Assembly (NCBI GenBank): GCA_030141605.1
Contig: JAQGDQ010000755.1
Coordinates: 1-42,057, forward strand
DNA: 42,057 nt
Direction: 5' to 3'
From: Tubiluchus corallicola
Lineage: Eukaryota; Animalia; Priapulida
This document shows positions 5,782 to 31,987 of the stretch, piece after piece. The notes under the pieces are model-generated. The model made no database searches. It saw only the letters and a program-made list of their open reading frames with translations, and was not told the origin of the DNA. Each line of letters begins with the position of its first letter. Positions within the stretch are counted from its first letter, which is position 1. The position numbers and the translations under genes were made by a program.

Positions 5782-5929
5782 ATGGGTTGTTCATCGTCGT
5801 CGAGCTCTCGTTGTCGCTGTCCTAAGAAGAAGACCTGTAAACATTCCATGGACTTTGAAGCTTATCAGTATAAACCCGTAAAAGTGTCCAGCTCAGCGAA
5901 TAAGAAAATAAAGCTTCAGCGTGCCACAG
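5782..5929 (+). CDS. Exon 1: MGCSSSSSSRCRCPKKKTCKH...LQRAT, N-myristoylation/palmitoylation plus polybasic motif
   Basis: ATG at 5782, with an in-frame alternative ATG at 5773. Donor acag|gtagtg is phase 1 and matches the exon 2 acceptor. Confidence 0.72.
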
Positions 5930-8900
5930 GTAGTGGGCCAAACCAAACCACAGGTAGTGGGTTCTGCACAAAAAAACTGGTTTTAGTTGAATTTTTCAGG
6001 TCTTGAAATCGATTTTCGTGATGCCTTGTTTGCAGGAAAACCGGACGATTGTTTAGACTCAATCTCATTTTAATCTACAGTCCAAAATATACATTTTTTT
6101 GCCTAAAAACGTTGGTTTTTATATTTGAATAATTAGCTTAGAAAGTTAATTAACGGTAACCGAGCACAGCTGTTGCTTACGTCAGAAACTAACCACAGTT
6201 TGTGCAATGGCAGGCAGCTTGTCTTGCGCACGAAGCGCGTTTGCGCAAGTATTACTGCTTAAATGCGTGATGTCACGAAAATGGGCTCTACGTCATATGA
6301 CGTCAAAAACTAACACTGCAGTTCAGGATCATGATTATCACGGTACCGCCCTTTATTTGTTGGCCACGTGCACGTGACAAAAAGGCACCATTGCCAATCT
6401 TAGTAGATTCACTGAGCCACGCGTAGCTTTGAAAGTGTAACAAAATTTGAGTATCCGAGGTAATTAGTATTTAATCTAAGATTTGATGTAAAAAAAGGCT
6501 GTGTAATTTTAATATTTTAGAGCATTCTTTATTCTGAACTAATGTTTACAAATCGTCCGGTTTTGCTTTAACGAGGAAGCTTCTTGGTCTCTTTTGGGAA
6601 AAATTTCGTAACAAAATTCGGATTACATACATGAATGAAATTATTTTTGGTTTTTTCTTATTTGTTTTTGTTTCGTAAGAAGTATTGCTTTATATTATGA
6701 CACTATCATCATTTTGTTGGAAACAAGTGTTAGCTGCAAACGTTCAATGCATTAGGTGCAGGCAGGGAATATGTCTGTTAAAACTCATTACGCATTCGAC
6801 TGCATTGTAGTGCAATTACTTTCTTGCAGTGCTTTCTCAACTTGCTTGCGCTATGACTGTGTGAGCGTAGGTTTAAATGCCGCGCATGCGCAGAGAAAGT
6901 GTTTGCTGGCTCGCATATCGAACAATGCTTCTAAAACTACTTTTAAAACTCGCCCCCACACGGCCATCTCTAGCAAAACTCGTAATGTTTTTCTTTTTAT
7001 AATTACAATTTATAATTTATAATTTACTTCCTGTATGTCGCTTATTGTACCGAGTACGAGATTGTAGTATTATATGCCCCATTTAATTGTCAATCTACAA
7101 CACTAAAGTACTGAATTAGTCTATGCTGCCATCTACAGTCATTGTTTTACTCTAATTGTACAAAGTTTGTCAGAGATTGATGTTTGTTTCCAAATATTGT
7201 TTCCTTTTGCTTTTATAGATACTCATTAACCAGAGTAATTAGATTGTTAATTTCATGCTTTAATCTCTGGTTCTAGCTAATTCAAGTTAATATAGAGAAA
7301 CATTATAACGCAGCTTTCTGTAAACAAATCATCTTTATTCTTCTATCAAAGAAGCCAAGTAGACTTTTGATTTTGGTTTAACTAATAGTTTGTAGGGTAT
7401 AGGTGACCTTTCCATTTATGGTCTGTTTGCATGAATGCTTGATGTACCTTCCAATAGGAACTTGTATGTCTGGTCATGTGATTAGACCTTCATTCTCTCA
7501 GGCATGCAAGTTTCAGTTGATCTAGAGACAGCATTCAGAAAGGATGCAAATTTTCTACTGTTAAAGCAATGTTGAAGAATGCAAAATTTCTACAGGATCA
7601 TATTGCCAACTTTTATGACTGTTTGTTCAATTTTGTTACTGAAGCGAACATTGTCTACTTTTTAAAATAAAGTGATTACAATTTGCATGTATTGATGTTT
7701 GATTATTGATCTTGTTCTTCTATGATCTTTTTGTCATTTTCTCTTTCTTTCACTTTTCAATCATGGTATGTTACCGATTCCATTCCAGAACCGTTGGAGG
7801 ATGGCCCGCCCTACAAGGGAGACATTCTGCTCGGAGTCCAGCTCTCTAGCGAGGTGTTCTCGACCGACACACACCAGGTGGTCACTTTGGGAACGGTGAT
7901 AGTTGAATCGGAGGATGCGCCCGCGGCTCAGTTGCGACGTTGCTTGCGTGGTCAGATTCCCAGCTTGCCCCCACAGTTCTCCTTTCTGACCAAACAAGGG
8001 TACGGAAGTTTTGTAATTCTTAATGACACAAACAGTTGTTGGATAAATAGTCCACAATATTTCAAATCTTATAACATTTGTATTAACGAACTCAGTGATG
8101 CCACTGTGCTGCCATCTACAGGTCATATCATATGACGTGTATGAATTGTTCAATGACATTACACCTTGTGCTTTCTGTTACCAAATTGTATGTTCTTTTG
8201 TTACTATGTATGTTTCAAAATTAGAGACGTTTATTGAGATGTTTTTGTGTGAAATCCAGCCATGCCTTTCCAGTCTATGGAAAGTATTTATAAGTGGAGT
8301 CATTTTCTGTCTAAAATGATGAATGAATCAATGAATGATTCAATTTGATGAGAGAAGATCATCAAAGTTGAATTAGAAAATTTGGAAAAATATAGAAATG
8401 TTCTGTGGAAACAATAATAATAGAGAAAAGACCAAAATAATTATAACTTTTGAAGAGAGGGAGAGAGAGATGGTGGTTGAGGACAGACGAGAAGCAGAGA
8501 GAGAGAGAGAGAGAGAGAGAGAGAGGGAGGGAGGGAGGGAGAGAGAGAGAGAGAGAGAGAGAGAGAGAGAGAGAGAGAGAGAGAGAGAGAGAGAGAGAGA
8601 GAGAGAGAGACCCCGTTTAGGCATCAGTGGTACAACAAGCATCCTAGTTGCATTACTGCAAATACAGGAATAAATATGTGCTTATTTTTATTTTAGATGG
8701 CCGGTCAGCACAGATCAAGAGTCACACGTTCGCATTTCTTCACTTGTCGGATTGACGCGTACAATTCAGATCAGACGGAAATTTGGTAAGTGAAAAGAAA
8801 TTGCATCGCTGCTTTATCTTAGTCGAGCTGTTTCTATACAGATTTCTTTTTTGCACCCCGGTCTGAACTGTGGTGCCATTAAAAAGCTTATTAACAAGTA

Positions 8901-31840: not shown

Positions 31841-31845
31841 AATAC

Positions 31846-31987
31846 CTTCAATAAGTACAGCTATTTCGAACACCCTGGCCACTATGCTCTCCCTCTCTTC
31901 CAGACTCTCCCCGCGAAACACGGTATGACCAAACGGAACGATCTGAAATGTACCGTCAGCATCCTGCCTGGCTTTATTTCGGCAATC
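31846..31987 (-). CDS. Exon 17 (present only in the inverted copy): DCRNKARQDADGTFQIVPFGHTVFRGESLEERESIVARVFEIAVLIE(G), SLOG continuation
   Basis: Minus-strand acceptor ttctgcag|gat and donor gaag|gtatta, 142 nt. The phase 0 start fits exon 16. S..ER..I......A.LI.G matches the LOG/SLOG motif leading into (P/E)GGxGT. Confidence 0.88.

Follow-up and report, generated by a model that had tools for sequence, protein, structure and literature searches.

The 42,057 nucleotides of contig JAQGDQ010000755.1 from the priapulid Tubiluchus corallicola (hereafter the window) carry a real animal gene, cut short in the window, whose product displays two ubiquitin-like domains, a first TIR domain (TIR1), a second TIR domain (TIR2) and a C-terminal SLOG domain, in this order. 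Taking together sequence conservation, models of homologous proteins and the analogy with known systems, we tentatively propose, with a confidence slightly short of even, that this protein is a nucleotide-gated enzyme cleaving nicotinamide adenine dinucleotide (NAD+), with TIR1 as the predicted catalytic unit and TIR2-SLOG as the predicted regulatory arm. An earlier note on this DNA, made from its letters, had claimed that one animal gene joins a TIR, a degenerate TIR and a SLOG in a single chain; full-length homologues show the same arrangement, and the motifs quoted there are all present in the window.

The gene model comprises 17 exons with AG/GT ends that join phase-consistently into 816 amino acids with zero stops. 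Compared with protein LOC106805611 of Priapulus caudatus the model shows 60% identity over 773 columns, reaching residue 791 of 909, and by tblastn each of exons 2 to 17 matches this protein; moreover, several intron positions are common to the window gene and a homologue locus (L016). Because of these exon matches, the Priapulus alignment and the shared intron boundaries we consider the gene real and animal, and the intron positions conserved among homologues exclude a bacterial contamination, as had been argued from the number of introns. Exons 1 to 16 are on the plus strand (5782-29196), whereas exon 17 is on the minus strand (31987-31846), thus no single strand of the window could yield a transcript with all 17 exons; the 17 phase-consistent exons described earlier hold with respect to phase and open frame, but the last of them belongs to the opposite strand, within an inverted copy that is described below. 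No tblastn match was obtained anywhere in the window for the last 118 residues of LOC106805611 nor for the remainder of the SLOG domain (about 80 residues, its C-terminal third, comprising 21 family-core columns), and neither 31845-30170 nor any other part of the window yielded a further exon past exon 17. Elsewhere among animals the SLOG segment that follows has an exon of its own, starting at the same boundary (14 of the 14 fragments listed).

Ubiquitin-like domain 1 is encoded by exon 2 (7789-7999, Priapulus match with E 2e-18) and ends in exon 3 (8697-8785); ubiquitin-like domain 2 is encoded by exon 4 (10145-10251) and by exon 5 (11358-11629), which carries its end and a disordered linker, as also seen in the homologue model. 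TIR1 starts in exon 6 (12872-13055), extends from the BB loop to the WxxxE motif (W375 and E379 of the model) in exon 7 (14600-14725), has its C-terminal part in exon 8 (16642-16777) and finishes with the last helix and a linker in exon 9 (19898-20064). Exon 8 holds a family signature: used as the sole query it found 75 proteins, and 75 of 75 candidates passed. TIR2 begins in exon 10 (20925-21050), continues in exons 11 (22214-22340), 12 (22899-23038, with Q611 at the position of the catalytic Glu) and 13 (24753-24854), and ends in exon 14 (26667-26783) together with a helix leading to SLOG. The SLOG domain is represented by exon 15 (27569-27663, strand 1 and Gly loop), exon 16 (29037-29196, TGG loop) and exon 17 (31846-31987, minus strand), the last in the window, which is found in the inverted copy only, displays 73% identity to Priapulus residues 744-792 and contains the conserved Arg (R801). 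Exons 3 to 6, 9 to 11, 13 and 14 were assigned by phase and Priapulus match, exons 12, 15 and 16 by phase and homologue alignment. Pfam scans of 14 single exons gave TIR_2 on one of them (exon 7, E 2.9e-6) and no match for SLOG.

The putative exon 1 (5782-5929) would supply the ATG and a myristoylation-type MGxxxS start followed by a Cys/basic stretch, in a phase that fits exon 2. The acylation motif of the earlier note is present, in a candidate exon without tblastn match to LOC106805611 and without homologue support. As a family-wide feature acylation was rejected, an MG start being present in 5 of 136 homologues, whose gene-model N-termini are unreliable. This set, on which all residue counts given below are based, includes the homologues of at least 650 amino acids from 186 proteins minus six isoforms and one low-quality record.

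Fold assignments were obtained from homologues, mainly from the Priapulus protein as modelled by AlphaFold (predicted local distance difference test, pLDDT, 77.5 on average). Foldseek matches of the ubiquitin-like pair included the tandem ubiquitin folds of ISG15, FAT10, talin and USP7; the region previously noticed as two repeats is present, and its identity as ubiquitin-like domains now comes from the homologue model, Foldseek and profiles. The closest solved TIR to TIR1 is that of SARM1 (Z 15.6, root mean square deviation (rmsd) 2.4 over 126, 24% identity), while TIR2 matched the SPARTA TIR (Z 15.9, rmsd 2.8 over 130). The SLOG fold proposed for the C-terminal region was recovered in the homologue models: the Priapulus domain matched the SLOG of BcThsA with Z 17.3 and rmsd 2.6 over 170, on a par with TM1055 and PpnN-like proteins, and TIR2-SLOG of another homologue, which folds as one unit (predicted template modelling score, pTM, of 0.79), gave for its SLOG a Z of 18.2 and rmsd 2.7 over 170 against ThsA, tied with TM1055 and the molybdenum cofactor (Moco) carrier. 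Moreover, Pfam LDcluster4 was over its cut-off in 1 of 8 homologues, with E below 1e-3 in 6 of the 8, and the half of SLOG present in the window scored 159 bits against the family profile. Neither SIR2 nor ARM or SAM domains were found in Pfam scans of these 8 homologues, and no ARM or SAM is present in the secondary structure of the Priapulus model. Matches in the ESM Atlas were all below 0.9 and were treated as leads only.

The two TIR domains differ at the catalytic position. In TIR1 the Glu of WxxxE is present in 133 of 136 homologues and the Trp in 134, and the window keeps 59 of the 62 TIR1 columns that are conserved at 80% or above. At the equivalent position of TIR2 the window has Gln (Q611), a residue found in 128 of the homologues, Glu being present in 2; of the TIR2 core 21 of 23 columns are kept in the window, and invariant residues of TIR2 suggest an interface. 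Two land-snail proteins (P0023 and P0024) combine a drifted SLOG with a Glu at the catalytic position of TIR2. In a study of TIR-made nucleotides, the Trp of WxxxE was linked to cyclisation of the ADP-ribose product (10.1101/2022.05.07.491051), and in a recent survey 12 of 61 animal TIRs assayed were active, mostly making cyclic ADP-ribose (cADPR) (10.64898/2026.04.20.719644).

The same survey can be read in favor of a non-enzymatic adaptor, in which both TIRs would be interaction modules in Toll-type signalling and SLOG a structural remnant, since most of the animal TIRs assayed were inactive (10.64898/2026.04.20.719644). An adaptor role has also been hypothesised for the group named ecTIR-DC proteins, as cited in PMC6321704, and the SLOG domain has decayed in several lineages. 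We regard such an adaptor as improbable: WxxxE is near-invariant from sponges to echinoderms in TIR1 only, the closest fold to TIR1 is an enzyme, SARM1, and most lineages have retained the pocket loops of SLOG.

Regarding the putative pocket, the Gly of strand 1 is conserved in 131 of the 136 homologues, the Arg in 122 and the final Glu of G-x-x-x-E in 119. These residues correspond by motif to those of the ThsA pocket for 3'cADPR, given as G289/S290, R371 and G399/E403 in section 12 of 10.1101/2022.05.07.491051. The N-terminal part of SLOG in the window keeps 27 of 29 core columns, including the Gly and the Arg.

SLOG may instead be a LOG/PpnN-type hydrolase which would degrade the product of TIR1, or an AMP-type nucleotide (AMP, adenosine monophosphate), and so limit the signal. 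The fold matches LOG and PpnN enzymes (Z 15-16), and SLOGs that cleave ADP-ribose derivatives have been proposed (PMC9503650). In the family the LOG-motif position reads Gly-Gly-Pro-Gly-Ala-Ala-x-Glu (a segment absent from the window), with the Glu kept and the Thr replaced. As reference for this comparison we took the LOG motif to be PGGxGTxxE, with a catalytic Arg and a catalytic Glu. On that assumption the Arg and the Glu of G-x-x-x-E, catalytic in LOG, are kept in most members, but the Thr is Ala in 100 of 136 homologues, and non-catalytic SLOGs score equally high or higher in the fold comparison; a degrading SLOG seems to us rather improbable.

Under the gated-enzyme reading that we favor, a cytoplasmic protein would cleave NAD+ by means of TIR1, as expected from TIR enzymology, and the Trp four residues before the TIR1 Glu would favor a cyclic ADP-ribose product. 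SLOG would bind an ADP-ribose-type adenine nucleotide that originates from TIR1 itself or from a different TIR, and the presumably rigid TIR2-SLOG arm would relay this binding to TIR1, permitting or restraining its assembly; the TIR1 product may in this way feed back on TIR1 through SLOG. The logic of such a gate would be that of ThsA, in which SLOG controls a fused NADase, and that of SARM1, in which a nucleotide sensor controls a fused TIR. The N-terminal acylation and the ubiquitin-like pair might place the protein at a membrane or at a partner. In a more specific version, which we consider possible but doubtful, the family would be a one-protein cyclic-ADP-ribose circuit kept since before sponges, in which a SARM1-like TIR writes and a ThsA-like SLOG reads and switches the enzyme, with an ancestry in protist TIR-SLOG proteins.

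Several observations weigh against a nucleotide-gated enzyme. In the survey mentioned above, 49 of 61 animal TIRs were inactive (10.64898/2026.04.20.719644), thus the catalytic Glu is no guarantee of activity. The structures are those of homologues, none being of the window's own protein, and ThsA is within 1 Z of TM1055, PpnN-like proteins and the Moco carrier protein, so the ligand cannot be read from the fold; likewise, the mapping of the ThsA pocket is by motif alone, with no residue-level superposition. The exon carrying G-x-x-x-E is absent from the window, Priapulus SLOG has lost this motif, and the strand-1 loop of SLOG is altered in the window, with Ile where 120 of 136 homologues have Thr or Ser. 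Part of the pocket is gone in the sister protein of Priapulus, so that in the lineage of this animal the gate is perhaps looser. Moreover, of 50 SLOG core columns four clams retain 4-7, four scallops 19-20 and an oyster 30, counts of which some may reflect truncated gene models; SLOG is lost or decayed in these bivalves while TIR1 is intact, which implies that the gate is dispensable.

The wiring that had been suggested originally is a self-contained writer and reader, in which TIR1 would make an ADP-ribose-type messenger read by its own SLOG, with an output other than TIR1 activity (a conformational change, or recruitment of a partner through TIR2 or the ubiquitin-like domains), as a Thoeris-like immune module. 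This is only one of several possible wirings, type I Thoeris fusing its SLOG to the effector, and we think it unlikely. A writer-type TIR motif and a ThsA-like SLOG do stand in one chain, TIR1 matches the PADLOC model of ThsB (E 4e-12), and the invariant TIR2 residues would offer an interface for such recruitment; but TIR1 is the sole effector domain, little would be gained from reading a diffusible messenger in cis, and a mostly single-copy, vertically inherited gene with a highly conserved TIR1 is unlike an arms-race gene. As for the physiological role, immunity is one guess, and the pattern of conservation would fit a housekeeping or neuronal role equally.

A Thoeris-like origin did not find support in the genomic context of related SLOGs. 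Among 90 open reading frames (ORFs) scanned around the nearest stand-alone bacterial SLOGs (28 loci; ORFs picked from 134 candidates within about 3 kb, cut-off 1e-5) there were 0 TIR and 1 SIR2. This single SIR2 gene (L057:6189-7223) lies on the downstream side of its stand-alone bacterial SLOG, and the two may form a split pair of the ThsA type. The absence of TIR neighbors, together with a SLOG that decays while TIR1 stays invariant, argues against a transplanted Thoeris system. A bacterial origin of the whole protein was also tried and rejected, 0 of 35 pattern matches in prokaryote genomes being confirmed with two exact peptide patterns of limited reach.

To place the SLOG domain, a search was carried out against 1.84 billion representatives, which gave 405 matches (150 listed); those listed outside the family included stand-alone bacterial SLOGs of about 200 amino acids, Macro-SLOG-receiver and channel-SLOG proteins, and algal or protist TIR-SLOG proteins. 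Domain content was scanned in 30 of these relatives. Tetraselmis P0233 and the protist P0228 have, ahead of SLOG, a Glu-bearing TIR that resembles TIR2; P0228, a protein from a marine-protist transcript, begins with MG, contains one ubiquitin-like domain, and its TIR is nearer to TIR2 (54 bits) than to TIR1 (26 bits). In the SLOG tree the 23 animal SLOGs group together (Shimodaira-Hasegawa-like approximate likelihood ratio test, SH-aLRT, 95) and stand with these eukaryote-type rows apart from bacterial-type rows (93); the tree comes from a rapid search that was not run to completion and leaves 27 of its 50 inner branches open, and no donor is claimed from it. These data suggest an older eukaryotic TIR-SLOG unit whose TIR was duplicated in animals, and the pairing looks older than animals because the protist relative has a single Glu-bearing TIR beside SLOG. 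An ancestral eukaryotic protein with ubiquitin-like, TIR and SLOG domains would then have acquired its second TIR early in animal evolution, and the copy adjacent to SLOG would have lost catalysis.

The same searches returned further SLOG fusions. In P0221 and P0247 an ion-transport (channel) domain is fused to the SLOG subfamily of the family, making them candidate nucleotide-gated channels distinct from TRPM. The algal and protist proteins P0228, P0233, P0256, P0254 and P0239, two of which begin with the MG motif, show TIR-SLOG or SLOG and, after it, a C-terminal domain that they have in common and that gave no Pfam match. Bacterial-type SLOGs are fused with Macro, GUN4, pentapeptide and receiver domains in P0267, P0269, P0270, P0276 and P0292, which suggests ADP-ribose-linked signalling.

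With the full-length query 184 family proteins were found among 7990 scored (120 listed). The named matches listed belong to sponges, placozoans, a flatworm, nemerteans, annelids, molluscs, a priapulid, a tardigrade, chelicerates, echinoderms and hemichordates; names of cnidarians, insects, nematodes or chordates do not occur among the matches listed, which does not prove their absence. In a FastTree phylogeny of 82 rows the branching agrees largely with the animal groups, and the window and Priapulus form a pair (support 1.0). The family is mostly single-copy and, on this tree, is vertically inherited from sponges to echinoderms. A large clade of homologues consists of single intron-less ORFs on long contigs (848 amino acids at L001:7893-10439; P0140, P0154, P0176 and similar proteins) and branches near homoscleromorph sponges; these are probably demosponge genes, and possibly derive from an early retrocopy.

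The family also includes TrispH2_005040 of Trichoplax sp. H2 (865 amino acids), which shows all five domains in order, lies inside the family tree and shares a 90% cluster with a full-length homologue 40% identical to the window model. This protein is labelled ecTIR-DC 15 and drawn with one TIR in supplementary file 1 (Fig. S1) of PMC6321704; by this sequence link the family is already catalogued as ecTIR-DC 15. The claim that the gene is not a characterised one stands with respect to function but not to cataloguing: topic searches of the literature, whose coverage left out most subscription papers, returned no description of the family's SLOG or of its function. SLOG is listed among the domains of cADPR-producing eukaryotic TIR proteins in the Fig. 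3 legend of 10.64898/2026.04.20.719644, and a member of the present family may be among the proteins assayed there.

According to that survey many animal TIR domains make cADPR, with receptors largely unknown (10.64898/2026.04.20.719644). A near-invariant catalytic-type TIR and a ThsA-like pocket in one conserved protein make the reading of TIR-made nucleotides by SLOG testable in animals, with natural built-in controls in the SLOG-decayed clams, scallops and Priapulus and in the protist single-TIR form. If the one-protein cyclic-ADP-ribose circuit were true, the protein would be the first case in animals of a soluble SLOG acting as receptor for a messenger made by a TIR.

The window copy of the gene is incomplete and probably mis-assembled. 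Positions 23843-30169, with exons 13 to 16, recur inverted at 39795 to 32375, and positions 21702-23967, with exons 11 and 12, recur directly at 39792-42057 with 1 difference in 2266 bases, the order in the window being a-b-c-[d-c inverted]-b, with exon 17 within d. In the inverted copy (minus strand, within 32375-39795) exons 13 to 16 are found at 38912-38811, 36890-36774, 36162-36068 and 33613-33454; 4 of their 474 bases differ, all silently, with 0 amino-acid differences. Six sampled stretches of the inverted copy differ from the original by 0-4.8%, and a 100-base minisatellite has 10 versus 21 copies in the two versions of the block. The intron after exon 17 in the inverted copy (30170-31845, minus strand) ends at junction 1 (30169/30170), next to what we take, from its motifs, to be a broken reverse-transcriptase fragment of a retrotransposon without long terminal repeats (non-LTR; 30190-31194, minus strand). 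The direct copy (39792-42057, plus strand, exons 11 and 12 at 40305-40431 and 40990-41129) starts at junction 2 (39791/39795), where a 4-base word is shared, and runs to the end of the window.

Four public runs, representing at most 2 samples, supplied contigs that were placed on 21000-40999. At the variant places of 23843-30169, at least 14 in the 40 of 346 rows listed, they carry the inverted-copy letter in 11 and neither letter in 3, and two contigs of one sample have inverted-copy letters and are collinear straight across 23843. Because contigs with these letters run straight across 23843, the inverted block is a second allele. Neither junction was spanned among the contig pieces and joints listed, a result that carries no evidential weight. 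We conclude that the block is probably an amplification or assembly chimera of two alleles and not the true layout of the gene; whole-genome amplification has inverted chimeras with short shared words as its main artefact (PMC1855051). A real duplication or inverted triplication by homologue template switching, together with a gene, intact or with duplicated exons, that extends past the window, appears less likely to us, although the arrangement has exactly the expected form and, the end of exon 16 and the start of exon 11 both being phase 0, splicing across the block would stay in frame. Against it, the inverted copy carries the differences of the second allele whereas the direct copy is identical, which is what the reuse of one node by an assembler would give, the contigs that stay collinear across 23843 come from one other DNA sample, and an inversion with a short shared word has the form of that amplification artefact (PMC1855051). 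The window also contains long minisatellite arrays (periods 59, 81, 29, 34 and 100) at 1964-3925, 13321-13964, 15593-16493, 17090-19587, 27739-28739 and 33911-35992, and a dispersed repeat at 6036-6571 that recurs inverted at 24183-24730.

When compared with known systems, the window protein shares its family with ecTIR-DC 15 by way of the Trichoplax protein so labelled, although the published figure (PMC6321704) leaves out the second TIR, the SLOG and the ubiquitin-like domains. With type I Thoeris it has in common a TIR with catalytic Glu, a SLOG with similar pocket motifs and the fusion of SLOG to a predicted NADase; however, Thoeris consists of a separate ThsB and a SIR2-SLOG ThsA in a prokaryotic operon, with SLOG fused to the effector and not to the writer, whereas here a single intron-rich animal gene lacks SIR2 (8 homologues scanned) and adds a dead TIR and two ubiquitin-like domains. 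Its SLOG is also nearer to Pfam LDcluster4 than to STALD, and the ThsA model gave no match in the 4 animal-type proteins scanned. SARM1/TIR-1, the closest in its solved TIR, shares the logic of a nucleotide sensor plus TIR, but is organized as ARM-SAM-SAM-TIR, while the window family has no ARM or SAM and its candidate sensor, SLOG, is C-terminal. The N-terminal region of TRPM is likewise an animal SLOG fold (TRPM2, Z 14.3, rmsd 5.2, with a weak sequence match of E 0.1), although of a different subfamily and with a channel that is absent from the window family. LOG, PpnN, the Moco carrier protein and TM1055 have the same fold (Z 15-18), but are stand-alone metabolic or carrier proteins, the LOG motif being partly kept in the window family. 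By analogy, the protein would work like a fused sensor-NADase, as a member of neither Thoeris nor SARM1.

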